Notes: generated by a model not told the origin, from the letters alone. A stretch of DNA of 64,000 bases from Zhongshania sp. (GCF_029212375.1 NZ_JARGNU010000005.1:161532-225531); one strand, 5' to 3'. Shown: positions 31,329 through 64,000, counted from the stretch's first letter. Translations and numbers: made by a program.

Positions 31329-34300
31329 ATGAGTACAGGCCTGTACAGACCTGAAGATGTGCGCGACAACTGTGGCTTTGGCCTGATCGCTCACATGCAG
31401 GGCACCGCCAGTCACACTTTATTGCAGACTGCTATTGAGTCGCTGACCTGCATGACGCACCGCGGCGGCATTGCCGCCGACGGTAAAACCGGTGACGGCT
31501 GCGGCTTGCTGCTTAAAAAGCCCGATGCATTCCTGCGGACTATGGCCCGTGAGGCAAATGGCGTTGAATTAACGGCAACCTACGGTGTTGGCCAAATCTT
31601 TTTAAGCCGCGATCCACTGCGCGCTAAAGCGGCTCGGGATGCCTTTGAGACTGTCCTCAAAAACAACAACTTACAGCCTGCTGGCTGGCGTGAAGTTGCT
31701 ATCGATCCAACGGTGTGCGGCGAAATCGCCCTGTCTAGCCTGCCTCGTATTGAACAGTTGTTCATTAACGTTGAGGGCATGGATACCCAACAGCTGCGTA
31801 CTTGCCTTTTTGTGGTGCGCCGCGAAGTGGAAATTGCGACAAAAGATGATCCGGATTTTTATATCTGTAGCCTCTCGGCCGACGTAATTGCTTATAAAGG
31901 TTTGGTAATGCCGGTGGATTTGCCGCGTTTTTACCTAGACCTAGCGAATCCTGAGCTGGAAACGGCGATATGCGTATTCCATCAGCGCTTCTCAACCAAT
32001 ACCAGTCCACGTTGGCCGCTGGCTCAGCCATTCCGCATGCTGGCCCACAATGGTGAAATAAACACTATTGAAGGTAACCGCAACTGGGCTGAGGCGAGAA
32101 CCAAAAACTTCAGCAGCCCGCTGTTGCCTGACGTTGCAGGCTTAATGCCGCTAGTGAATCGCACTGGCTCTGACTCTTCAAGCTTGGATAATATGCTTGA
32201 ATTGCTGGTTGCTGGGGGCATGGATCTATTCCGCGCGGTGCGTATGTTAGTGCCGCCAGCTTGGCAAAATATTGAACACATGGATGCGGATTTAAAAGCA
32301 TTCTACGAATACAACTCCATGCATATGGAGCCGTGGGACGGCCCTGCTGGTTTGGTGCTTACCGACGGCCGTTACGCCGTATGTATGCTCGACCGCAACG
32401 GCTTGCGCCCGTCGCGCTGGGTGATTACCAAAGACGGTTTTATTACCGTGGCATCCGAAATTGGCACCTACGGTTATCAGCCAGACGACGTTGTCGCCAA
32501 GGGCCGAGTTGGGCCTGGGCAAATATTGGTTGTTGACACTGAAACCGGTGAAGTCCTGCACACCGAAGAAGTGGATAATCGCCTGAAGTCTGCACACCCC
32601 TATAAACAGTGGCTGCGCGAAAACGGCAATCGTCTGCAAGACCAATTGGCGCAGGGCAATCGCCCCGACCTGCCCGAGGGCGATACCCTCGTTGCCTTGC
32701 AAAAGTATTTCCAAGTCAGCTTTGAAGAGCGTGAGCAGGTGTTGTCTGCTTTGGCCGATAGCGGCAACGAAGCCGTTGGTTCGATGGGTGACGATACGCC
32801 GATGGCGGTTCTGAGCCGTCAGCAGCGCTCGCTATACGATTACTTCCGTCAAAAATTTGCGCAGGTTACCAATCCGCCAATCGACCCCCTGCGGGAGTCG
32901 ATTGTAATGAGTCTGGAAACGTTGCTCGGCGCTGAGCAAAATGTTTTTGAACAAACGGCTGACCACGCCGACCGTTTGATTCTGACTAGCCCAGTGTTAT
33001 CGCCAGATAAATTTGACCGGCTGATGCACGTTGATTCGCCGCGCTACCCGCTAGCGCGGATTGAACTGGCGTATGACCCAGCATTGACCTCCCTGCAAGA
33101 CGCAGTGACTGCTGTTGCCGAAGCGGCTGAAGCCGCCGTGCGCAGCGGTAAAGTTATTTTGTTATTAAGTGATCGTGGTATTGAACCTGGCATGTTGGTT
33201 GTTCACAGCTTGCTGGCAACGGGAGCCGTGCATCACCACTTGATAAAACAGGGTTTACGCTGCGATGCCAATATTGTTGTTGAAACTGGCAGCGGCCGCG
33301 ACTCTCATCAAATGGCCTGCTTGTTTGGTTTTGGTGCGACGGCGGTCTACCCTTATATGGCCTTCGCTGTTATTAGCGATATGTTGGAAGATGGCTCGAT
33401 TCTCGGCGACGAGCAGACTGCGCACACCAATTACTGCAAAGGCATTAATAAAGGTCTGCTCAAAATTATGTCCAAAATGGGCATATCGACTATCGCCTCT
33501 TACCGTGGCGCCCAGTTATTTGAGGCTATTGGTTTAGCTGACGAGATTGTAAACACATGCTTTAAGGGTGTTGCTAGCCGTATCGCCGGAGCAGGTTATG
33601 CCGAGTTGCAACGCGATCAAGAAGCCTTGGCGACCATCGCATGGCTGCCGCGTAAGCCGCTAGATCAGGGTGGCCTGCTGAAATACGTGCACGGCAAAGA
33701 ATATCATGCGTTTAACCCCGATGTGGTAATGACACTGCAAGACGCGGTTAAGAGCGGTGACTACGCGGTTTGGAAAAAATACGCGAATCTCGTGAATACC
33801 CGCCCAGTGGCGACTTTGCGCGACTTGCTTGGCATTAAAGGCGACGTTAAGCCTATTCCGCTTGATGAAGTCGAACCTATAGAGAGCGTGCTGCGCCGCT
33901 TCGACTCGGCAGGTATGTCGCTGGGTGCATTGAGCCCCGAGGCTCACGAGGCGCTGGCAACGGCGATGAACCGGCTTGGCGGTCGTTCAAACTCTGGTGA
34001 GGGCGGTGAAGATCCCGCGCGCTACGGCACTGAGCGGGTATCTAAAATTAAGCAGGTTGCCTCTGGCCGCTTTGGTGTTACCCCGCATTACTTGGTGAAT
34101 GCCGAAGTTCTGCAGATTAAAGTGGCTCAGGGTGCGAAACCTGGCGAAGGTGGCCAGTTGCCTGGCGGTAAAGTAAACGCCTTGATCGCGCGCTTGCGCT
34201 ATGCGGTGCCTGGCGTAACCTTGATTTCACCGCCGCCACACCACGATATTTATTCTATCGAGGATTTGGCCCAGCTGATTTTTGACCTTAAACAGGTTAA

Positions 34301-35777
34301 TCCCAGCGCGTTAGTGTCGGTTAAATTGGTGTCTGAGCCCGGCGTTGGCACTATCGCCGCGGGTGTTGCTAAAGCCTATGCCGATTTGATTACCATTTCT
34401 GGTTATGACGGTGGTACGGCGGCAAGCCCAATTACCTCAATCCGCTATGCTGGCTCGCCGTGGGAACTCGGTTTGTCCGAAGCCCAGCAAACTTTGCGCG
34501 GCAATGGCTTGCGCGGCAAAGTGCGGGTTCAGACCGACGGTGGCTTAAAAACCGGCCTCGACGTGGTTAAAGCGGCGATGCTCGGCGCTGAGAGCTTTGG
34601 CTTTGGTACCACGCCAATGGTGGCGTTAGGTTGTAAATACCTGCGTATCTGCCACTTGAATAACTGCGCAACGGGTGTGGCTACTCAAGATGAGCGCCTG
34701 CGCGATGAACACTTTATTGGCACTGTCGAAATGGTGATGAATTTCTTCACCTTTATCGCGATGGAAACCCGCGAGTGGATGGCCAGCATGGGCATTCGCA
34801 CTATGGCTGAGTTGATTGGCCGCACCGATTTAATGGAACAGAAACAGGGCCAGACTGACAAACACGGCTTGCTCGACTTGGCACCGATCTTGTACAAAGA
34901 TCCGGCAATGGCCGGTCAGCCTGAGTTCTGCGAAGTGGATCTAAACGCACCTTTCGACAAGGGCGAGAAAGCCGAGGCAATGGTTGCCGCGGCACTGCCG
35001 GCAATTGAAGCGAAAACCGGTATTGAATTAGATTTTGCTGTTACTAACTGCGATCGCTCTATTGGCGCACGTCTGTCCGGTGAGATTGCCAAGCGTTATG
35101 GCAATCTTGGGATGGAAGATGCACCGGTTATCCTCAACCTAAAAGGCACTGCGGGTCAGAGCTTTGGGGTGTGGAATGCGGGTGGCCTGAACATGCTCTT
35201 GGAAGGCGATGCTAACGACTATGTCGGTAAAGGCATGGCTGGCGGTAAATTAGTAATTTACCCACCCAAAGGTAGCGTGTTTGCTAGCCAGGATACCGCG
35301 ATTATTGGTAATACCTGTTTGTACGGTGCTACAGGCGGTAAATTGTTTGCCGCGGGTATTGCCGGCGAGCGCTTTGGCGTGCGTAACTCTGGCGCCCATG
35401 CGGTAGTAGAAGGCGCTGGTGATCACTGCTGTGAATACATGACTGGCGGTAATGTGACCGTATTGGGTCCTACAGGGGTCAATTTTGGTGCAGGTATGAC
35501 CGGTGGCTTCGCCTATGTGCTCGATGAAGCCAACCGCTTCGTCGATCGCTATAACAGTGAGCTAGTCGAAATGTGTCGGATTACCTCTGAGTCTATGGAG
35601 GCATATCGGGCACATCTGCGCGGCAATATTCAAGAGTTTGTGACTGAAACTGGATCGGCTTGGGGTCAGCATATACTTGATAATTTTGATGACTACATCG
35701 GTAAGTTCTGGATGATTAAGCCTAAGGCGGCGAGCCTCAGCCGTTTGCTTGACTCCACCAGAAGACGTCCGGAATAA
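31329..35777 (+). CDS. gltB: Glutamate synthase (NADPH) large subunit
   Basis: 1482 aa. N-terminal Ntn-amidotransferase CGFGLIAH, the FMN/3Fe-4S central domain, and a C-terminal GXGXG beta-helix domain. Confidence 0.97.
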
Positions 35778-53565: not shown

Positions 53566-54444
53566 TCAGTAAGGCAGGCGCAGCGGCGCTTCTTGCATCA
53601 AGGCCAGCTGTTCCCGCAATTGTAAAATATGCTCGCCCCAGTAGCGCTCGGTGTTAAACCAAGGGAAGGCTTTGGGAAACGCTGGATCCTGCCAGCGGCG
53701 CGCTAGCCATGCGGCGTGGTGCATAATTCGCAGGCTGCGTAGCGCCTCGATGAGACCCAGTTCTTTGGGATTGAAATCGTAGAACTCATTGTAGCCTTCC
53801 ACTAACTCCATAATGGCGCGCTGTTGGGCGTCCTGCTCGCCAGAGAGGAACATCCATAAATCCTGTATGGCTGGAGCCATGCGGCTGTCGTCAAAGTCGA
53901 CCAGCCAGGTTTCGCCGTTGCGCGACAAAATATTGCCAACATGGCCGTCGCCGTGGGTGCGGATATACTGAGGTGCAATGTCTGTAAAGCGCTGGTGAAC
54001 GCGTTTTAACAAATCTGCGCTGAGGCTGGCGTAAGCATCGCTTAAATTGCTTGGAATTACCCCGTCGAGGATAAAACTGCGGCTTTCGTCGCCAAAACTG
54101 GTGGTATCTAAGGTCGGCCGATATTGAAAAGGCGTGCTGGCGCCAACCAGATGCAGGCGGCCAATGAGGCGGCCGAGTTGAAAGAGATTGTCCATATCGT
54201 CGAGGGCTGGGGCGTGCCCCCCGCGACGGGGGTAAAGTGCGAAGCGGTAGCCTTCGAAGCTGAATAAACTAGCGCCCGCTTCATTGCGCCAGGGCGCAAT
54301 GACAGGAATATCGGTATCAAAGAGTTGCTGGGTAAATTGGTGCTCCTCTAGAATCTGCTCGTCGCTCCAGCGTTCGGGGCGATAAAATTTCACTACTAGT
54401 GGTTCTTTGTCTTCCAACCCAAATTGGTACACTCGATTTTCGTA
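53566..54444 (-). pseudogene. srkA: 5'-truncated native stress-response kinase gene srkA/rdoA (yihE family)
   Basis: The reading frame matches SrkA from YENRVYQFG.. to the C-terminus (FYRPERW, HGDGHVGNIL, DFDD, PAFPKAFPWFNTERYW). An in-frame TAA at 54451-54453 replaces the first 35-40 codons. No ATG and no homologous N-terminus lie upstream. The tracked ORF uses an internal GTG. Confidence 0.75.
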
Positions 54445-54465
54445 GCAACCTTAATTGCCGCGTTT

Positions 54466-54607
54466 ATGTACATCGCTTGTAGCCCAGAAGACATGGCTAT
54501 TTAAGGACGGGGGGTGAAAATATATGTACAAGGAGGAATTGGCGGTTTTTATGTACAAAATTAGAAAATAATGTACATATTCAAATTCAAAAAATAATTA
54601 ATGTACA
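54466..54607 (+). repeat. Five direct copies of ATGTACA (two extended to palindromic ATGTACAT) in an AT-rich 142-bp tract at the island junction
   Basis: Copies start at 54466, 54524, 54551, 54571 and 54601, each preceded by T/A-rich bases (tt/at/tt/ta/ta). The tract lies between the truncated srkA and the stop of the island srkA-like gene. Confidence 0.8.
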
Positions 54608-54622
54608 CATGCGACCGGTGAG

Positions 54623-55615
54623 CTAAGAATTGCCATTCTGTCTGGATAACGGCTCTTCCTGGAGGATGCTGAATTGCTCTCTTAACTCAATAATGTGCTC
54701 CGCCCAATACCTCTCAGTATTGAACCATGGAAAGGCTGAAGGGAAAGCTGGATCGTTCCATCTTCTTGCTATCCAAGCTGCGTAATGCATCATCCTTAGT
54801 GTTCGCAGTGGTTCAACCAATATCAGTTCATCATCATTGAACTCGTGGAACATCTCATAGCCTTCTAGCAAGGCCTCCAGCTGATCTGTTTGATCCTGCC
54901 TGTCTCCGCTGAGCAGCATCCACAAATCCTGCACTGCGGGCCCCATTCGGCAATCATCAAAGTCCACGAAAACTGCACGCTCATCACGCCAAAGGATATT
55001 GCCTGGGTGGCAATCAGCATGAAGGCGAATTGCTGTGTATGGACATTGTTTAAAAAGTGCTTCTATTTGGATCAGAAGGTCTTTGCTTAGGGTTTCATAA
55101 GCCTCTCGGAGGCTATCCGGGATATAACCGCTAGATAGTAAATAATCGCGACTGTCGATACCATAAGACTGTATGTCGATAGTCGGACGGTATTTGAACG
55201 ATGATAGGGCACCTATTGCATGGAGTCGTCCTAAAGAGCGTCCTAGCAGCGCTATAGTGTCAAACTTATCCAGCTCTGGTGCGTGCCCTCCAAAGCGTGG
55301 AAATAGTGCAAAAGTAAAACCGTCAATCTGGTGCGTGGTTGTGCCTTCAGGCGAAACTAAAGGAGCAACGATTGGCCACTCGGCTGCTTCTAACTCACGA
55401 CTAAAAGAATGCTCCTCTGCAATCTGTTCGTGTGTCCAGCGCTCGGGACGATAGAATTTGGAGATTATAGGCTGGGTGTCCTCTATACCTATCTGAAATA
55501 CTCTGTTCTCATATGAGTTAAGGACTGTTAGACGGCCATCGCAGAGGTAGCCTTCGGCCTCAATAGCATCAAGGATGACGTCAGGTGTTAGCTTGCTGTA
55601 GGGATGTTGTTGCAT
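54623..55615 (-). CDS. srkA: Full-length SrkA/RdoA (YihE)-family stress-response kinase, island-borne xenolog
   Basis: 330 aa. LNSYENRVFQIG, KFYRPERW, HADCHPGNILW, VDFDD and PAFPSAFPWFNTERYW. By eye it is roughly half identical to the adjacent truncated copy, with clearly different codon usage. Confidence 0.85.
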   Translation of the reverse strand: MQQHPYSKLTPDVILDAIEAEGYLCDGRLTVLNSYENRVFQIGIEDTQPIISKFYRPERWTHEQIAEEHSFSRELEAAEWPIVAPLVSPEGTTTHQIDGFTFALFPRFGGHAPELDKFDTIALLGRSLGRLHAIGALSSFKYRPTIDIQSYGIDSRDYLLSSGYIPDSLREAYETLSKDLLIQIEALFKQCPYTAIRLHADCHPGNILWRDERAVFVDFDDCRMGPAVQDLWMLLSGDRQDQTDQLEALLEGYEMFHEFNDDELILVEPLRTLRMMHYAAWIARRWNDPAFPSAFPWFNTERYWAEHIIELREQFSILQEEPLSRQNGNS

Positions 55616-55940
55616 TGCCGGTACGCCTAGAAAATTAGGCTTTTAGTATACAGGACGCGGATTTCCTGCGGGAGAATGATTCGGCACCTAGAGGGCTGGC
55701 ATGGACGCCGATGTTGGGTTTCAATATTCGGCCGTTTATGCTCCTAAGTTGGGTAGGGTTCTACCCCGTATCTATGATCGCAGCTAAAAGTAAGGAACAT
55801 ATTCGTGTCGTACACTCCGGGCTCTATGGATGACAACAGCATGTTGTTGGTAGACAATAAAGTTGTAAAAAAATAATATAATTTACTCTACTTTTGTTCG
55901 TGCTCTTCATATTTTCGATCAGCGGCTGCATGTAGGCACA

Positions 55941-57377
55941 TTAACCGCCTTTAGCTATTGAAGAAATAGCTCCACAATCATTCGGTTTATCGAAACTAGA
56001 GCTACTTTTTACATAGTCATTAACCAGCTTTCCGAGCTTAGCAACCAGCTCTTTATTTGTTGTCATAAAGCCCAGGGGCATAGTCACCGGTAAAGTTTCT
56101 GGTTGCGAGAAATGGTAAATCACAACACCCACTTCATCCTCAAGATGCAGAATTTCAATATTCCCATCCAAGAAACCTTCCGCAAGTCCTCTTGCATAAT
56201 CATGAAACTGCCCAAGTTCATGCTTCCACTGCCTAGCTACTCTGAAATCCTTATCATCCGATACGGGTACATACAATATGGGGTCATATAGCTTCTTCTC
56301 CTTCGTGCTAGACCTTCGAATGAAATCGCTTAAGCTAGAACTAAAGCGACTACTCTTTGCCCAGTATGGATCCGAAGGCGCAATCCAAATAAATCGGCTG
56401 CCGCTGGTATCAGCTTTGCTTTTTATACGTTCATTGATCACTGAAACTAAAGACTTCTGAAACTGATCCCAGTTGCTTTTCGAGTATATCGGGCCAAGGA
56501 AAGTCGTCCTGCCAGAAGCAGTATGCTCCTCCAAAGCTCGTATATCCTCTAAATAGTTCGGATTAATCAGATTTGTATTTGAATCAAACAGCTTCAGAGT
56601 CTCTTCATCGCTTAGCGAAAGCATGGACTTAAAGATACTCATGGTATTGTTGAGCGTCGATAACCTAGATAGCTCAATGGCCATTAGTTCATGAACACAC
56701 TCCGAGCTATTTAGCTCTTCATAGTCTTCACGTTCAACAGCCTTACCGTCGTTATCCATCTGAAACGTTGTAGTCAAACGTAGCGGCAGCTGCCGCAGTT
56801 TATTGACAGAGTTCACGGTGTAGATAGAGGGTTGCTCTTTTCCATCCTGAGTCTGTATGTGAGATAGGTAGCCCTTATCTAGAATCTGGTTGAACTGATG
56901 CTGGAAGTGTTTCTCTACCAGCTTTTCGCTTTGAGAGGCGTTGCCATTATCGATATTGAGAGATATACCATCTTTCCACTTGTCTTGGTCATTCTGGTTG
57001 CTGAAGCAACTAAACGTAGCTAGATCAAATGACAGGGTAGCCCCACTATCTTGTACGGTAGAAAGCTGAGGGATTTCACCAATTTCAGAGAAGTACCCAC
57101 TTGATTTTTCAGTCAAGGTCAGGCGTCCTTCCGGTGAAAGTGTCAGTTCACCACGCTGAACCAAGTCTGAAATTGCTTCGTCAGTCTCACGGCGGCTAAG
57201 GCCAAAATAGGTCGAAATTTGTACTTTGCTCATAGGTGCGACATGCATAATCCTCAGCACAAACTCTCTGATAAATGGCAGCCCTCTCTGAGAGACATAT
57301 GAAAACTGAATGTTAAACCTCTGCGCAGGCAGTAGGAAGTCAACCTCGTGATACGTTACAGTGTTATCAGACATCAT
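55941..57377 (-). CDS. Hypothetical protein, N-terminal winged-helix-like region plus unassigned C-terminal about 380 aa; partner of the NERD-kinase-helicase gene
   Basis: 478 aa. Its ATG overlaps the upstream stop (ATGA at 57374-57377). Residues 33-92 (LPFIREFVLRIMHVAPMSKVQISTYFGLSRRETDEAISDLVQRGELTLSPEGRLTLTEKS) look like a MarR/wHTH unit. There is no HxKxxxxD, Walker or other motif that I can name. Confidence 0.7.
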   Translation of the reverse strand: MMSDNTVTYHEVDFLLPAQRFNIQFSYVSQRGLPFIREFVLRIMHVAPMSKVQISTYFGLSRRETDEAISDLVQRGELTLSPEGRLTLTEKSSGYFSEIGEIPQLSTVQDSGATLSFDLATFSCFSNQNDQDKWKDGISLNIDNGNASQSEKLVEKHFQHQFNQILDKGYLSHIQTQDGKEQPSIYTVNSVNKLRQLPLRLTTTFQMDNDGKAVEREDYEELNSSECVHELMAIELSRLSTLNNTMSIFKSMLSLSDEETLKLFDSNTNLINPNYLEDIRALEEHTASGRTTFLGPIYSKSNWDQFQKSLVSVINERIKSKADTSGSRFIWIAPSDPYWAKSSRFSSSLSDFIRRSSTKEKKLYDPILYVPVSDDKDFRVARQWKHELGQFHDYARGLAEGFLDGNIEILHLEDEVGVVIYHFSQPETLPVTMPLGFMTTNKELVAKLGKLVNDYVKSSSSFDKPNDCGAISSIAKGG

Positions 57378-60300
57378 TTCTGCTTCCCATCCTGCGTAGC
57401 TGAGGTAAATGCGTACCCAGCTTCCTGACCACGCTCAGTCATATAGCTAACAACGGAGCCCAATGGCAGCTCCTTGTTGATCCCCTTCCAAATATCCGCG
57501 TTACCAACAATCAACAAACGATCCATTGCACGGGACATCGCAACGTTGATCCGATTTGGTGCGCGCAGGAATCCTGGGCTATGCCGCTTATCAGAACGCG
57601 TTAAGGACAAAATGATGATCCTATTTTCTTTACCTTGATAGCTGTCTACCGTGTCAATTTTGACGATATCCTTGAAGCCATCACTCCAGATTTCCTGATT
57701 GAATTTCTGGCGAAGCAACCGCTTTTGCTCGGCGTACATACAGATCACACCGATTGCAGCTTCATCTTTGCTAGTGAGCTTTGAAAGCTCCACAACAAAA
57801 TCAGCATTCTCAGACACCTGTTTGAGCACAGATATAATCTGATCAGCTTCGCTGCGGTTGTAAATACTTGTCCCACGATCTTCCAAGTGATGCGCCCGCT
57901 GGCCCAAGTTAGAGGTATCTATCCAAGTCACCATACTACGCAAAGCTTGCGGTGCATGCTGATAGACGTCCGGAATTACTCGATCGCCATTACGAAGCTT
58001 GCCTTCATAGAAGGTCTTCGATACCAAATCACCAATAGGCGGAGCCATTCGATACTGAGTCAGCAGTGCAGCGCTAGCTTGATCACCATAGGTAGAGTTA
58101 AATGCGCGAGCAAAGTCACTTCGTAATACTTCGTCGATCTCAGTGCGCAAACTGTGGATTCCCAACTTCCTAGCCAACGCAGCCTTGTGCGCATCGGAGT
58201 ACAACGGAGGTAACTGCAGGTGGTCTCCCACTAGCAAAACACGTCTAGCAGATTGCATCGCGATGGCTAGTTCACTAGCAATTGACCGAGCAGCCTCATC
58301 GATAATCACCCAGTCGTAGATGTTTTCATGAATGCCAATGTGACCTTGACCGATACCTACACATGTTCCAGCCACCAACTGTCTGGAGCGCGCATAAAAC
58401 TCATCTAAGTTGACCCGCTCTCCAGATAAAGCATCCTGCATATCCCTCGATATTTTTGCTAGTGCTTTGACTCGACGTGCCTCATCAGGCCTAACACCGT
58501 ACTTCCTACATAACGTGGAAATCAGTATTTCTTTTGCGTCTGAGACCCTCGCTCCTGCTTCTAGGCTGATGCCATACTCTGTGCTTAGCTTGGAACGGAT
58601 TGAAAGATCCAGTTCTACTGATATATCTTTAAGCTCCTTTATGTCTTTCTCATCGCTTAAGTCATTGACTTGGTATAGCAATGTCTCAAGGTGATCAATT
58701 TGCTTGAACAGTTTAAGCTCTGCCAGCACAACACTGGAAATGAACTCAGGCTCCAAGCCAATGGCCTCACTCAAGGCTTCAACGCGATACTTACTCTCAG
58801 CATTGAAAAGTTCACGCTTCTCAGTTGTGATTGAGTTCGAATAGACATCTTTTAGACCTGGAGAAACAGCCCCTTCGCGATTACTAAACCTTACGACTTC
58901 CAGATCGGTATTGAGTCGGGCACAGTGCTTCCTGATCCGCTCAGCAGCTGTATTTACAGCCTCATGCGACTGGCTTACCAATAAGATGCGATTGGTGTTC
59001 TGCTTTTCAACCAAATAATGCACAAAGGCTGCAATAAACTCTGTTTTACCCGTCCCCGGAGGGCCCTGTAGCAGGGAAAGTGGCCCATTGTTGACCAACT
59101 TGGCGAAGGCCTCTCGCTGCTGTTCATTTAGGCTAATCTTGTTTCCGTGCTGGTCTTCACGATCATACCTGGCGAAGTCAGTGTCCCTTAACGATATGCC
59201 GTAGTTCGTTGCGGCTTTTTCGCAAGCTGGATCAAAGAGATCCATCAGGTCTGGCATCACACCTTCTCGATCCAGTAGTCGCTCCAAAGCTCGTTTACGT
59301 TTGCGATATGAAGCACGATCCTGTTTGGTACGGAAGAAGACGATATCAGAGTCGTTCAACTTGTATGCTGCCGCTCGTGTTTTGATCAGTCGAACTTCCT
59401 TGAGCGCTGATTTCTTAAGTGACACCTCACCAATGAACCTCTCTACACCCTCCTTATCAACCAATAATGCTTCGACTTCATCACTACTGCTGAATCCACC
59501 TAGAGGATCTACATCTGCAGAGTAAGGTATCAGAAGCTCTCCACGGACGTCTGCTACAGGAACAATTTCACCACTAACTTCAATATTGGGATACGACTCA
59601 GTCTCTGTATCTAGGATTGCCCTCCATAGCTTCGCTGTCGGTATTTCGAGGGTCTTTGCTGACGCTGGCGCAACAGCCTGTTCATCTAGCCTTGAGAAGG
59701 CTTCCTTCAGCTGAAGAGTTAGCGTGTCTACTTCAAGCTCTGTTTTTTCTTCAGGTGCTGTCGCCAACTCAATCGCACGAGCAAAAGACTCATCTTCATT
59801 AAGCAGCGCAGTCAAAGTAGACATGTCTTGCGGGCGACCAGGAATAACCCGTATACCAGTGCCAATCTCAAACTGGCTATCGTCAATATCCTGCTTGCGA
59901 ATAGATGTCCGTGGCCATGGTTTAAACCCAACAAGCAGAGCTTTCTGCTGTTTGCAAAACATTGCAGAAAAACTGCCACCAATCCCAATAAAGGTTACTT
60001 TGACCTCAGTTGGCTCTCTATGGTTAGGCTCTATTTTGACATACATATGCCCGTTATCGGGTAGGATGGTGATAGCTTCATCGGCGTCGCCTGCTGTAAT
60101 CTCAATCAGGCTTTGCGTCGACGATGCTTCATCGCTATCTATCGCCTTTTTAAAGCGACCTAAATCCTTAAACCCAAACTGAGAATCTTCTAACTCAGCG
60201 CGAATTGCATCTGCCAAGGCGGGGTAAGTCTCAGACTCATGCCCCCAAGACAAACCAAGCAACTCGCAGGACATCTTCATCACTGCAAAGTTGTCACGTT

Positions 60301-62347
60301 CAAAAGAAGTACACCCATCGATGTATTCAGGACTATAACTGTGGTTTTTGGGCTCTTCTCCTGACGGTGAAAAATCTGGGATATCGATTAAGTAGAGAGA
60401 GCAACTTTCAGTCTCCAGCATCACGTTGCCAGGATGAATATCGCCATGAGCAATGCCAAGGCCATGCAAATGCTCTACAGCAGCAACGAACTTACCAATT
60501 AGCTCTGTTTTCTCATCGTCCGCAATCAGCGCCTTGTCCCAGGTAGCACCTTGGACTTTATCTGTAACCATGTACAGACTCGATGACTTAGAGGCAATAC
60601 CAAACTCTCGTATTTCTGGTAGGTAAGTCGGTTTAACTAACGAAAGTTTATCTAGCTGTTTCAGAAAAGTAAGAACCCGGAAGTTTGCTGCCGAGTCATC
60701 TCCTTGTCCGCCTGCATTCAGCCAGGCTTTTACGAGTCTTCCGCCTGATACATAGACTTCTTTCTCAGCTGTCTCTACCAGAAAGTCATCATCTTCTCGA
60801 TACTGACGCGAGTGGTTGATAGCATGCCGGTAGGGATCAAGATCAGCGTCATCAAATGTTGGAATAGGCTCGCCTGCAGGTTCAGCTTGCTTCAATACAT
60901 CAAAAAATTCCGTAGCAGAAGCGAACCTTGCAGCAACAGCAGCCAATAAGACTTCTGAAAACCATTGATCACTATTGAGCATGTCATCCTGAACTGTTTC
61001 AAGGCTCTTAGGAGACATACGCGTGCCGCTAAGCAAATGCCAGGCAACAAGACCTAAGGCATGAATATCCTGCTGAAAAGGTGTCAAGTCGCCCCCATCT
61101 AACATGCCTTGAGCTTCAATCGGACCCACTGACAAGCTCTTGCGATAATCTCCAACCGTACCAGCAGGTTGGTGGTATGCTGAGATAAAGTTTGATAACG
61201 CGACCTCTTTTGATGGTGAGATCCAGAGACTGTGATCAGCAATATCCCTGTGAGCAATTTTCATCTCGTGCAAGTCGCCAAACTTAGCAATTAACAACTT
61301 AGCGACATTCAAGCGGTCTAGTTCTGAGAAAGCCTTGCCATACTTTCCTATAAATTCGTTAAACCGAACATGACCAGGTGGTAGCTCGTATACCTCACTG
61401 TATTCTGCTGTTACTTCGTCTTTTTGGAAACTCGTCAGAGATCTCAGGCAGTGGTTGTATAGATCCCGGTTTTGGTGGTTGATGTGCTGTAACACCTCAC
61501 GCTCTCGGGAAACAATTTCTGCTCTTCCTTCAGGAGTGTATGCCTTGCTACCCTCAACATTCTTAAACTTCCATACGCGAAGCAAGGCTTCTGCGTTACT
61601 CGATATTTCCGACTTAGCAATGTATTCCTTATATACCTTTTTCGGATGTTCGAAGATGATATCTATGGCTTCATAGCCATCTACCCGATGAGCTTTAGGG
61701 GCTGTTTGCGGCCCAATAAACAATTCATCAAACAAAGGAAAGTCTTGGTTTAAAACCTGCGCATTAGGGTGCGGCTTAAAGCGTGAGTTAAATAACTTTC
61801 GGTCTGCAAACTTAAGAAATTCTTCAAGCGATATAGTGTGAAGTAACTGATCTTCCCGCAGCTTGCTAAAATCAGCGTTCCCCGTCATAACTACGAAGAA
61901 ATGGACATGAGGTACAAATCCCTTGTTGGTAAAACGATGAGCAACTCTTAATAGTTTATTATCCAGAGTTTGTTTCTTTACTCTGGTAACGCTCACAGGC
62001 GAGCGTTTCATATTTTTGTTACCTTTGTACCAATTATCGCCTCTCGCCGTTACTGGTTGATGGTTCCAATCCTTCAGTTCGACAATGATCACAATGCAGT
62101 GAGTCACGATGATTAGGTCAAACTCCCCATCGTGATTCTTCGAGTCAACAAATCGAAAGCCTGCATAGCCTTTCCATGGGAACATACCTTTGTTGTTGCC
62201 ATAACTGCTTTGCAGCTGGTCGCGCAGAGTTCCTCCACGAACAGGAGCCTTAGGTGCATTAGTAGAACCCGAAAAGGCAGCCTTTATTTTCTCGATGGCT
62301 GCGACTTCCTGCTCTTGTAAGCCACCATCCCAAATTTCTACTTCCAT
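57374..62347 (-). CDS. 1657-aa multidomain protein: NERD nuclease-like domain, degenerate kinase-like module, intact APH/ePK-like kinase module, unassigned linker, Upf1/DNA2-like SF1B helicase
   Basis: NERD core FDLIIVTHCIVIIVELKDW (D77, E90, K92). Kinase-like module 1 has IAHRDIADHS but SNF in place of DFG. Kinase-like module 2 has IAHGDIHPGNVML...LIDIPDF. Helicase motifs: I GPPGTGKT (aa 1095-1102), II VIIDEAAR, III LVGDHLQLPP, IV QYRMAPPIG, V DSYQGKENRIIILS, VI RINVAMSRA. GGAAGGAAG RBS before the ATG. Confidence 0.9.
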   Translation of the reverse strand: MEVEIWDGGLQEQEVAAIEKIKAAFSGSTNAPKAPVRGGTLRDQLQSSYGNNKGMFPWKGYAGFRFVDSKNHDGEFDLIIVTHCIVIIVELKDWNHQPVTARGDNWYKGNKNMKRSPVSVTRVKKQTLDNKLLRVAHRFTNKGFVPHVHFFVVMTGNADFSKLREDQLLHTISLEEFLKFADRKLFNSRFKPHPNAQVLNQDFPLFDELFIGPQTAPKAHRVDGYEAIDIIFEHPKKVYKEYIAKSEISSNAEALLRVWKFKNVEGSKAYTPEGRAEIVSREREVLQHINHQNRDLYNHCLRSLTSFQKDEVTAEYSEVYELPPGHVRFNEFIGKYGKAFSELDRLNVAKLLIAKFGDLHEMKIAHRDIADHSLWISPSKEVALSNFISAYHQPAGTVGDYRKSLSVGPIEAQGMLDGGDLTPFQQDIHALGLVAWHLLSGTRMSPKSLETVQDDMLNSDQWFSEVLLAAVAARFASATEFFDVLKQAEPAGEPIPTFDDADLDPYRHAINHSRQYREDDDFLVETAEKEVYVSGGRLVKAWLNAGGQGDDSAANFRVLTFLKQLDKLSLVKPTYLPEIREFGIASKSSSLYMVTDKVQGATWDKALIADDEKTELIGKFVAAVEHLHGLGIAHGDIHPGNVMLETESCSLYLIDIPDFSPSGEEPKNHSYSPEYIDGCTSFERDNFAVMKMSCELLGLSWGHESETYPALADAIRAELEDSQFGFKDLGRFKKAIDSDEASSTQSLIEITAGDADEAITILPDNGHMYVKIEPNHREPTEVKVTFIGIGGSFSAMFCKQQKALLVGFKPWPRTSIRKQDIDDSQFEIGTGIRVIPGRPQDMSTLTALLNEDESFARAIELATAPEEKTELEVDTLTLQLKEAFSRLDEQAVAPASAKTLEIPTAKLWRAILDTETESYPNIEVSGEIVPVADVRGELLIPYSADVDPLGGFSSSDEVEALLVDKEGVERFIGEVSLKKSALKEVRLIKTRAAAYKLNDSDIVFFRTKQDRASYRKRKRALERLLDREGVMPDLMDLFDPACEKAATNYGISLRDTDFARYDREDQHGNKISLNEQQREAFAKLVNNGPLSLLQGPPGTGKTEFIAAFVHYLVEKQNTNRILLVSQSHEAVNTAAERIRKHCARLNTDLEVVRFSNREGAVSPGLKDVYSNSITTEKRELFNAESKYRVEALSEAIGLEPEFISSVVLAELKLFKQIDHLETLLYQVNDLSDEKDIKELKDISVELDLSIRSKLSTEYGISLEAGARVSDAKEILISTLCRKYGVRPDEARRVKALAKISRDMQDALSGERVNLDEFYARSRQLVAGTCVGIGQGHIGIHENIYDWVIIDEAARSIASELAIAMQSARRVLLVGDHLQLPPLYSDAHKAALARKLGIHSLRTEIDEVLRSDFARAFNSTYGDQASAALLTQYRMAPPIGDLVSKTFYEGKLRNGDRVIPDVYQHAPQALRSMVTWIDTSNLGQRAHHLEDRGTSIYNRSEADQIISVLKQVSENADFVVELSKLTSKDEAAIGVICMYAEQKRLLRQKFNQEIWSDGFKDIVKIDTVDSYQGKENRIIILSLTRSDKRHSPGFLRAPNRINVAMSRAMDRLLIVGNADIWKGINKELPLGSVVSYMTERGQEAGYAFTSATQDGKQK

Positions 62348-62470
62348 GCTTCCTTCCTAAATGAGGATAAATTAGGGTTGAGGATCTATCCTTTTATAAA
62401 TTCTTCTTAGCAACCATTTCTTTTACGGCACCACTCATCGAAAGATGATTGTACGTTGCGACCTTATTTA

Positions 62471-64000
62471 TCACTCCACAATCGCCTTCAACAGCGCATC
62501 TCTTGCGTCCTGGTAAAACTGGATGTCGATCTTGGTCGCCATATCATCCGATAGATCATACAGCTGCCTGCGACAGGTCACTGGCATCAACAATGATGAC
62601 GCTCCTTTCTCAACCGCCAGTTCAGTAATATTCACTGCACTATTTATCGGTTCAATTGAGCCACCCAGGTTAATTTCACCCACCACAATCAGGCCACCTT
62701 TAACAGGTTTTTTGAGCAGGCCGCTGCACATCGCAACCAGAGAGGCGATACCAAGCTTCGATCCACGCTTGGAGGCGTCAAACGCCCTGAGCTGTATCGT
62801 GAACTCATGCGCACGCGGGTCACGATCGCCAACCAGTTGCATAGCTCGAGAATAAAGGTTCTGCTCAGCGTAACGGACAGATTCACGGAACGCTGGCGGT
62901 ACTGGATTGTTGAGGATTTTGACTCCCGAGCCCGGACCTTCATTAACTTCAATACGATACAAGCCAGGGTTGTCGTCAATGTCCTGGCCACCCTCGCTTA
63001 CAGTCCAAATCTGACCTGGCTCTAGTGGGTCATCGCCAATTTCGTTATCTGATCGGAGCTCAGGCGTGGCAACAAACTTCTCGACACCGTCATCACCCAG
63101 GAAATAACTGAAATGGGTATTGCGGAACTCGGCGGCACCCACACGCTTTTGCTGCTCTTTGACGCGGCGACGTACTTCTAACCCCAGTCTTACCGCCCAT
63201 TCCAGATCTTTGTCGCTGATCTCCATGTCCTGTGAGGGATACATCAGTTTCAGCAAGCCAGATACGGTTTTGTTAACGGCATTTACATCACGACCACTCA
63301 ATGCCCCACCAAAGTGAACGCGATTTTGTAGTACGCTAACTCGGCTTTGGAAACGCAAACGACTTAAACATTCAGAGAAAAAGTCACTGACCAATCCAAA
63401 GTGATCGGTCGTGAGCTCTTTGTTCATTTTCGGCACATCCCAGCCGGGCAGATAACAATGGATACGATCCATCCAAGCGGTATCGTCACGCATTTCTTGA
63501 GGCAGTGGCCCGAATAAATGTCCAACCCGCTGCTGGTGCTCTACATCCACATCAAAGTTGCCGACAAACACCATCGAGCCGTCAGCGCGAATGCTTTCCT
63601 TGCCTCGTGAGAACTCGCCTGACTCCATGTAGCCCTTCATGATGTTGATCCCTTCTTTGGAATCGAAGGAAATGCCACTCACTTCGTCGAAGCAGACCAC
63701 ATCGTATTGGCATACTAAGCCGCGCGCTCCGGAGGCATTATTCACGAACATCTTGGCAATGGTCGCTTTACCACCGGAAATCAAATGCGCATAGGGGGAA
63801 ACCTGCTGGAAGAGATGGCTCTTGCCGGTACCGCGCGGCCCCAGCTCCACCAGGTTATAGTTACGCTCTACAAAGGGAACCATACGCAGCAAATTGGCAT
63901 CTTTGGCGCGGTCGCTCAACGCGTTTGCTTCGAGCCCAATACTGCGCAGAAGAAAGTCTTTCCACTGCTGGCTGGTAAACTGCTTTCTTGCTTCGGCTAA
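62471..64000 (-). CDS. brxL: BREX system Lon-protease-like protein BrxL (3' about 510 codons; 5' end beyond the window)
   Basis: The frame stays open through 63920-64000 upstream of the tracked TTG (own translation LAEARKQFTSQQWKDFLLRSIGLEANA-LSDRAK...). Long colinear matches to BrxL as I remember it: W.D.LLRS.G.EP, VPFVE.NYN..ELGPRGTGKSH, FDEV.GI.F, IPGW..PKM, RDV.AV..TVSGLLKLM.P, EVRRRVKEQ.K, and a C-terminal Lon-like domain. Confidence 0.9.
   Translation of the reverse strand, partial: LAEARKQFTSQQWKDFLLRSIGLEANALSDRAKDANLLRMVPFVERNYNLVELGPRGTGKSHLFQQVSPYAHLISGGKATIAKMFVNNASGARGLVCQYDVVCFDEVSGISFDSKEGINIMKGYMESGEFSRGKESIRADGSMVFVGNFDVDVEHQQRVGHLFGPLPQEMRDDTAWMDRIHCYLPGWDVPKMNKELTTDHFGLVSDFFSECLSRLRFQSRVSVLQNRVHFGGALSGRDVNAVNKTVSGLLKLMYPSQDMEISDKDLEWAVRLGLEVRRRVKEQQKRVGAAEFRNTHFSYFLGDDGVEKFVATPELRSDNEIGDDPLEPGQIWTVSEGGQDIDDNPGLYRIEVNEGPGSGVKILNNPVPPAFRESVRYAEQNLYSRAMQLVGDRDPRAHEFTIQLRAFDASKRGSKLGIASLVAMCSGLLKKPVKGGLIVVGEINLGGSIEPINSAVNITELAVEKGASSLLMPVTCRRQLYDLSDDMATKIDIQFYQDARDALLKAIVE

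Follow-up and report, generated by a model that had tools for sequence, protein, structure and literature searches.

A 64,000-nucleotide (nt) stretch of DNA from Zhongshania sp. (GCF_029212375.1, NZ_JARGNU010000005.1:161532-225531), here called the window, carries two adjoining genes on its minus strand, which also holds every coordinate-bearing domain and spacer described below. The upstream gene, mkoA, is an open reading frame (ORF) of 1657 amino acids (aa) with an ATG start (57374..62347); the downstream gene, mkoB, encodes 478 aa, also from an ATG (55941..57377). At their junction, AAATGATG, the TGA stop of mkoA and the ATG of mkoB overlap as ATGA. The pair is almost certainly an intact anti-phage system, Mokosh type I of the Escherichia coli SEC470 kind, carried on a mobile cassette of two genes that sits where a type 1 bacteriophage exclusion (BREX) locus has its 3' end. 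MkoA is the large subunit of that system and MkoB the small one, in the form labeled "HTH" (helix-turn-helix), which lacks the HKD motif of phospholipase D (PLD) enzymes. The stop codon of brxL lies at 62471 and the mkoA ATG at 62347, leaving a gap of exactly 123 nt (62348..62470) in which a ribosome-binding site, GGAAGGAAG, stands immediately 5' of the ATG. A promoter scan of the coding strand of this spacer found no sigma-70-like site, and the spacer contains no terminator-like site. The GC content of the two genes is 45.7%, against 52.4% for positions 1-53000 of the window. An earlier interpretation made from the sequence alone (the sequence-only reading) had described two same-strand ORFs that overlap at ATGA, begin 123 bp after the brxL stop and lie in an AT-richer island; the coordinates, junction and base composition confirm this description.

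Both proteins match Mokosh type I profiles along nearly their whole length. Residues 1-1652 of MkoA align to positions 1-1602 of 1607 in the PADLOC MkoA model PDLC03921 (E=0, 2134 bits), and residues 2-472 of MkoB align to positions 3-452 of 454 in the MkoB model PDLC03923 (6.2e-141, 468 bits). The SEC470 pair is entered as system SG199, "Mokosh type I", marked "v", in the cloned-systems table of Millman et al. (2022, bioRxiv 10.1101/2022.05.11.491447), with a 1652-aa MkoA labeled "Kinase-Helicase" and a 478-aa MkoB labeled "HTH" (IMG genes 2720391838 and 2720391839). Table S8 of the same work marks it "Type I ... Verified". The SEC470 sequences are printed for the first 399 aa of each protein, and over that length MkoA and MkoB from the window are 79% and 73% identical to them, respectively, and collinear from the N-terminus. 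MkoA is also 80% identical, over 1655 aligned positions, to a 1652-aa ortholog from E. coli MDP9-27, and the pair is present in 326 of 5426 complete E. coli genomes at 75-77% nucleotide identity. The window and SEC470 systems share gene order, protein lengths (1657 and 1652 aa for MkoA, 478 aa for both MkoB proteins), the kinase-helicase and HTH-only labels and the two PADLOC models. They differ in host, a marine gammaproteobacterium as opposed to E. coli, and in ∼20-27% of residues.

Three features place the pair in Mokosh type I: an MkoA that combines a COG1112/Upf1-like superfamily 1 (SF1) helicase with a Ser/Thr kinase (STK) domain (Pfam AAA_11, AAA_12 and Pkinase), an MkoB encoded beside it in the same operon, and orthology to the verified SEC470 exemplar. 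One feature of the published general description is absent, namely an MkoB PLD nuclease with the HxK(x)4D motif; the window MkoB has no HxK tripeptide anywhere. However, the verified SEC470 MkoB is likewise labeled "HTH" only, whereas the other two type I systems in the same table have an MkoB labeled "HTH-PLD" (bioRxiv 10.1101/2022.05.11.491447), so the HKD motif does not define the subtype to which this locus belongs. The sequence-only reading had correctly noted that the partner is without HxKxxxxD. Its step from there to a protein that is not MkoB fails on the SEC470 label and on the PLD-like fold predicted for the C-terminal domain (see below). It had further held that the pair, although similar to Mokosh and PglW, matches neither and could represent a new system or subtype, and had named PADLOC models and Pfam profiles as the check. 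The full-length, high-coverage matches of both genes to Mokosh type I, together with SEC470 orthology, refute that claim and remove the novelty. What survives is its broader proposal of a defense module within a defense island, which agrees with the Mokosh type I identity and with the neighborhoods of relatives. In RefSeq, the orthologs from E. coli go under "AAA domain-containing protein" and "hypothetical protein", and such generic labels explain why the sequence-only reading failed to place the pair. The locus adds one more copy, this time from a marine gammaproteobacterium, to an already catalogued and experimentally verified SEC470-type system; the system is known, not new. By analogy with its SEC470 ortholog, the Zhongshania copy would be expected to protect against phage.

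Domain architecture of MkoA

Pfam, NCBIfam and PADLOC models bear out the string of domains that had been read from the MkoA sequence: a NERD domain, two kinase-like modules, a middle region of ∼290 aa and an Upf1/DNA2-like SF1B helicase. The NERD domain, of PD-(D/E)xK type (aa 57-153, 61889..62179; Pfam NERD, 9.3e-8), holds the candidate catalytic residues D77, E90 and K92, the last two within VELKDW. These three residues and E75 do not vary among 25 sequences that reach down to 41% identity, nor do they in two more distant homologs, L014 and L015 (28-30% overall identity). The first kinase-like module (∼aa 225-490, 60878..61675) resembles PglW and MAD6 in both NCBIfam and PADLOC. In NCBIfam, the MAD6 kinase model matches residues 69-487 (8e-33) and PglW matches residues 57-443 (8e-23); neither reaches its cut-off (114 bits against 460 for MAD6, 80 bits against 990 for BREX_PglW). 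The PADLOC PglW model aligns to residues 57-450. H366, R367 and D368 (the HRD motif), H372 and S385 stay unchanged in relatives as distant as 28% identity. With SNF in place of DFG and without the catalytic-loop Asn, this module is possibly an atypical kinase or a pseudokinase.

The second kinase module (∼aa 560-735, 60143..60670) matches Pfam Pkinase at 582-660 in two stretches (7e-12) and contains HGDIHPGN, which includes D636, and LIDIPDF. With its HGD...N...IDxxD pattern, it looks catalytically competent. In PADLOC, the short-form MkoA model PDLC03920 covers residues 560-1641 (453 bits), and this module is the STK domain of canonical MkoA. Its motif is kept in all relatives checked but one. 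The exception (L015 524-5410) is a 1628-aa MkoA relative with the NERD domain, the kinase-1 HRD and the helicase motifs, in which HGD...N is replaced by SGK...K; kinase 2 may be dispensable in some lineages.

The middle region (∼aa 736-1060, 59168..60142) contains no Pfam domain and lies within the span aligned to PDLC03920. An AlphaFold2 model of aa 730-1075, built from a shallow alignment because homolog searches with MkoA sub-regions yielded mainly truncated fragments, consists of two small β-barrels joined by helices, with a mean predicted local distance difference test score (pLDDT) of 78.8 and a predicted template modeling score (pTM) of 0.42. This model gave no Foldseek match at E<=0.001; the weak matches (E ∼0.02-0.1) were to FNR/SIP-type barrels, Upf1 (9qdq, E=0.017), Dna2 and nsp13. 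The helicase core follows (aa 1073-1617, 57497..59131). Pfam AAA_11 covers residues 1073-1382 (6e-38; model positions 2-253 of 257) and AAA_12 covers 1409-1617 (2e-43; model positions 3-194 of 195). The Walker A lysine, K1101, lies in GPPGTGKT, and motif II is DEAA at 1350; Walker A and the first two residues of motif II (D1350 and E1351) are invariant down to 28% identity. The closest solved structures, judged by sequence matches to the PDB, are Upf1/NAM7, DNA2, IGHMBP2 and Sen1. The individual residues singled out beforehand (K1101, D636, and E90 with K92) all sit in the motifs to which they had been assigned.

The PglW model aligns to residues 57-450 and PDLC03920 to 560-1641; on this basis, the window MkoA is the STK-helicase MkoA of the canonical form, extended at its N-terminus by a PglW/MAD6-like NERD-plus-kinase module ∼550 aa long. 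PglW, from type 2 BREX (Pgl), and the MAD6 kinase of MADS share an N-terminal NERD plus kinase-like module with MkoA (aa 57-490). The likeness to them is partial: they do not match the Upf1-like helicase part and they have other partner genes. Moreover, PglW belongs to a pglWXYZ operon, whereas the BREX system adjacent to mkoA is of the brxL type. Enterotoxigenic E. coli (ETEC) H10407 carries the canonical "STK-helicase plus HTH-PLD" form of Mokosh type I. Kinase 2, the middle region and the helicase of the window MkoA (560-1641) correspond to that form through PDLC03920, and the N-terminal half of MkoB aligns to the corresponding MkoB model, PDLC03922. In contrast, the ETEC MkoA has 1215 aa, with no NERD found in its printed first 399 aa, and its MkoB partner carries GSHAK...D within a PLDc_2 domain. 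Compared with the ETEC system, the window system has the ∼550-aa NERD and kinase-like module as an extra and has lost the HKD site.

Sequence and predicted fold of MkoB

MkoB has no Pfam domain above threshold; a weak match to wHTH-PRTase_assc was seen at residues 45-88. Searching PDB sequences with a profile of the MkoB family gave nothing useful. We modeled the protein with AlphaFold2 from a 90-sequence alignment, which gave a mean pLDDT of 94.3 and a pTM of 0.89. In the model, the N-terminal half (∼aa 1-285, 56523..57377) comprises long β-hairpins, a winged helix-turn-helix (aa 35-88) and helices. The winged helix drew Foldseek matches to TrmB and DtxR. Beyond these, the matches in the PDB were almost exclusively to the PLD superfamily: vaccinia F13 was the best (8.7e-5), and others were phospholipase D (7e0m), Nuc (1byr, template modeling (TM) score of 0.47 normalized to the target), NucT (6ehi, 0.51), Zucchini/PLD6 (4ggk), PLD3/4, phosphatidylserine synthase and the pseudo-PLD modules FAM83 and MITD1. 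The C-terminal α/β domain (∼aa 286-478, 55944..56522) is the part with the PLD-like fold, and it contains no HxK(x)4D. MkoB is predicted to combine a winged helix with a C-terminal domain that still has the PLD-like fold but no longer the HKD site.

The family as a whole agrees with this description. None of 90 members, down to 17% identity, matches a PLD model in Pfam; as a control, the printed fragment of the ETEC H10407 MkoB matches PLDc_2 at 3e-9. Y186, G295, E408 and G436 are invariant across the same 90 members. Residues 12-249 of MkoB match the HTH-PLD model PDLC03922 (2.4e-13), whereas the C-terminal half does not. When the MkoB family profile was compared with the ETEC fragment in hhalign, the only match was N-terminal and non-significant, so the link between the C-terminal domains of the two MkoB forms rests on Foldseek. 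A distant MkoB relative (L014 8001-10994), of 997 aa and 24% identity, carries two double-stranded RNA-binding motifs (dsrm, 1e-22). Its gene comes after that of a 1625-aa NERD-helicase MkoA, beside a type I restriction-modification system. These motifs hint that MkoB might bind double-stranded RNA.

An Upf1-like helicase paired with a PLD-fold module is also found in Mokosh type II (MkoC) and in the eukaryotic MOV10L1/Zucchini (PLD6) pair, and MkoA and MkoB have been linked to MOV10L1 and PLD6 (Cury et al.). MkoC differs from the window pair in being a single chain, with an N-terminal helicase, a C-terminal PLD domain that has an active HKD site, and neither kinase nor NERD. The PADLOC MkoC model matches the window MkoA at 120 bits over helicase residues 1342-1640 only, and the locus is not of type II. 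Zucchini has a catalytic HKD site, unlike the window MkoB.

Possible division of labor between MkoA and MkoB

Mokosh defense is lost on mutation of the helicase ATP site and on mutation of the PLD active site; the text does not say which Mokosh system carried the PLD mutation (Millman et al., bioRxiv 10.1101/2022.05.11.491447). No solved Mokosh structure was found in the PDB. We propose tentatively that MkoA is sensor and effector together. The Upf1-like 5'-3' helicase would engage phage RNA or replication/transcription intermediates, using ATP (K1101), and the kinase modules would regulate or signal, kinase 2 being apparently competent and kinase 1 apparently atypical or inactive. The PD-(D/E)xK site of NERD (D77/E90/K92) would supply the nuclease activity that the MkoB PLD supplies in the canonical ETEC-type system. 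MkoB itself, a winged helix joined to a PLD-like fold without HKD, would be a nucleic-acid-binding partner that targets or gates MkoA. Taken as a whole, this scheme is plausible but falls short of probable. It draws on the invariance of the NERD triad, Walker A and D1350/E1351 down to 28% identity, on the retention of a PLD-like fold without HKD in MkoB, and on the two double-stranded RNA-binding motifs of the one distant MkoB relative. It also draws on the short ETEC form, in which an MkoA without NERD (in its printed first 399 aa) is paired with a PLDc_2-positive MkoB, and on the loss of Mokosh defense in helicase ATP-site mutants.

A related reading concerns the SEC470-like, NERD-bearing branch in general. 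There, the MkoB PLD domain would be a dead, nucleic-acid-binding pseudo-enzyme, joined in some relatives to double-stranded RNA-binding motifs, and the nuclease role would have moved to a NERD domain acquired together with the PglW-like kinase module, i.e., by effector swapping. We regard this as possible, with some doubt; no statement or test of it was found in the literature searched.

Several points weigh against the assignment or the mechanism. Beyond the 399 printed residues, full-length orthology to SEC470 is supported by the PADLOC models and by other E. coli orthologs, and the role of NERD as effector is one that we infer. The TM-scores of the PLD-like fold matches are modest (0.46-0.51 to small nucleases), and the invariant E408 could mark a different, still active site in MkoB. 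T-even glucosyltransferases and the ADP-ribosyltransferase Alt are required to evade a system named "Mokosh_Type_I_A" (HIDEN-SEQ preprint); that DNA glucosylation aids evasion points to DNA rather than RNA being sensed or cut, in a system that may be of another structural subtype. One group could not purify Mokosh type I (2025 preprint on nuclease-NTPase systems), and our literature search found no biochemical mechanism or mechanistic study for it.

Within the same family, defense might instead be driven by the kinases as abortive infection, with phosphorylation of host or phage proteins in the manner of Stk2 and the nuclease-like domains secondary. Conservation of both kinase-like modules fits this proposal, with the kinase-1 HRD invariant to 28% identity and HGD...N...D intact in kinase 2, as does the need for T4 Alt, a protein modifier, in evading a Mokosh type I system. 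However, at least one relative that is otherwise intact (L015) no longer has the kinase-2 motif and kinase 1 lacks both the DFG Asp and the catalytic-loop Asn, and we consider a kinase-driven system unlikely. A second alternative is that MkoB is still the effector, its PLD-like fold housing a non-canonical active site, and that NERD does no more than bind or sense nucleic acid. The published Mokosh model does put the nuclease in MkoB, the fold is retained at very high model confidence, and E408 and G436 are invariant across 90 members. This alternative is nonetheless distinctly improbable, because the whole protein contains neither the nucleophilic His nor the Lys of HKD, no member matches a PLD model, the structural neighbors include the known pseudo-PLD modules FAM83 and MITD1, and it is the NERD catalytic triad that is invariant.

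Neighborhood and mobility of the cassette

We compared the locus with further full-length loci from Hahella, Shewanella, Azonexus, Vibrio cholerae, E. coli, Pseudidiomarina, Klebsiella, two Enterobacter and two metagenome contigs. Diverse homologs were sampled in this way after a scan of genome contigs with MkoB yielded six loci, too few for enrichment statistics. A 1625-1667-aa MkoA homolog stands directly upstream of the MkoB homolog in all 11, and it is a NERD-helicase in each of the seven loci with Pfam data. The pairing persists where MkoB is only 22-25% identical. Where neighbors were examined, they included Dnd genes, a type IIG enzyme, type I, II and III restriction-modification systems, an SLFN/AlbA gene, HNH nucleases, integrases, a toxin-antitoxin pair and the tra genes of an integrative and conjugative element (ICE). 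The window locus is itself in a defense-island and mobile-element context. Its insertion site, after brxL, differs from that in E. coli, where the pair occupies an integrase island. In strain MDP9-27 (L002 12012-18403), the pair in that island lies beside a degraded primase pseudogene of a TOTE system.

Zhongshania, Pseudidiomarina and Hahella are gammaproteobacterial genera of different orders. The Pseudidiomarina copy is 89.7% identical to the window in nucleotide sequence, with the identity confined to 55846-62384, and the Hahella copy is 88.6% identical, confined to 55939-62408. Homology to these two copies consists of the two genes plus at most ∼60 nt upstream and ∼95 nt downstream. In the brxL-mkoA spacer, only the mkoA-proximal 37-61 nt are conserved with them. 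Homology that ends at the gene borders shows that the pair moves as a cassette, independently of BREX, and this degree of identity indicates that the cassette was transferred horizontally between genera in recent times.

The 3' part of brxL (BREX type 1) occupies 62471..64000, also on the minus strand, and runs past the window end (PADLOC PDLC02506, 7.7e-217, model positions 202-677 of 680). It is context and lies outside the Mokosh system. An identical contig from Logan (L001) gives the order DUF4276 (PADLOC HEC-01B), PglZ, BrxL, MkoA, MkoB, two APH-family kinases and housekeeping genes. The DUF4276 gene (L001 1-531) is directly upstream of pglZ and matches the PADLOC candidate HEC-01B (6.5e-58); it may be a system embedded in the BREX locus. 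Directly downstream of mkoB, on the minus strand, are two tandem APH-family phosphotransferase genes of 330 and 288 aa (53566-55615; Pfam APH, 2e-32 and 5e-27), intermediate in GC fraction (0.495). We ruled them out as parts of the Mokosh system, as no PADLOC model hits either gene and conservation with the other cassette copies does not extend to them. Elsewhere in the window, the gltB product (encoded at 31329-35777) falls into a cluster with Zhongshania proteins at 90% identity or more, which identifies the host as a Zhongshania, and positions 1-64000 contain no tRNA gene.

Its position could suggest that the pair serves the neighboring BREX system as a functional accessory, a kinase/helicase arm like PglW that works with BrxL and PglZ instead of acting alone. 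The genes are on the same strand, 123 nt after brxL and with no terminator-like site between, which makes read-through transcription possible, and aa 57-450 of MkoA are homologous to PglW of type 2 BREX. We find this explanation very improbable. Homologous pairs occur without BREX, beside Dnd, restriction-modification, ICE and integrase islands; the nucleotide homology with other genera stops at the cassette borders; the SEC470 pair defended alone when cloned; and the PglW score of 80 bits is far under the NCBIfam cut-off. Scarcely credible is an undescribed defense system or new subtype that merely resembles Mokosh and PglW: a partner without the HKD motif that the published description gives to MkoB, and the generic labels that RefSeq still gives to the E. 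coli orthologs, would favor it, but existing MkoA and MkoB models match end to end, the pair is orthologous to verified SEC470, whose MkoB is also "HTH" only, NERD (PF08378) is already listed among Mokosh type I domains (2023 review, PMC10952713), and DefenseFinder output already holds a lettered subtype name, Mokosh_Type_I_A, which implies that DefenseFinder subdivides type I.

The locus is a catalogued, experimentally validated system. Its nucleotide identity of ∼89% across three genera, with homology ending at the gene borders, means that the cassette moves as a unit between defense islands. What interest remains lies in how the NERD-bearing branch without HKD may differ in mechanism from the canonical one, a contrast that has received little attention. 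An HKD-less MkoB of PLD-like fold with a NERD-bearing MkoA, set against an HKD-positive MkoB with an MkoA in which no NERD was detected, is a contrast that can be tested with concrete mutants. If the effector-swap reading is true, it would be a case of effector exchange inside one named defense family.

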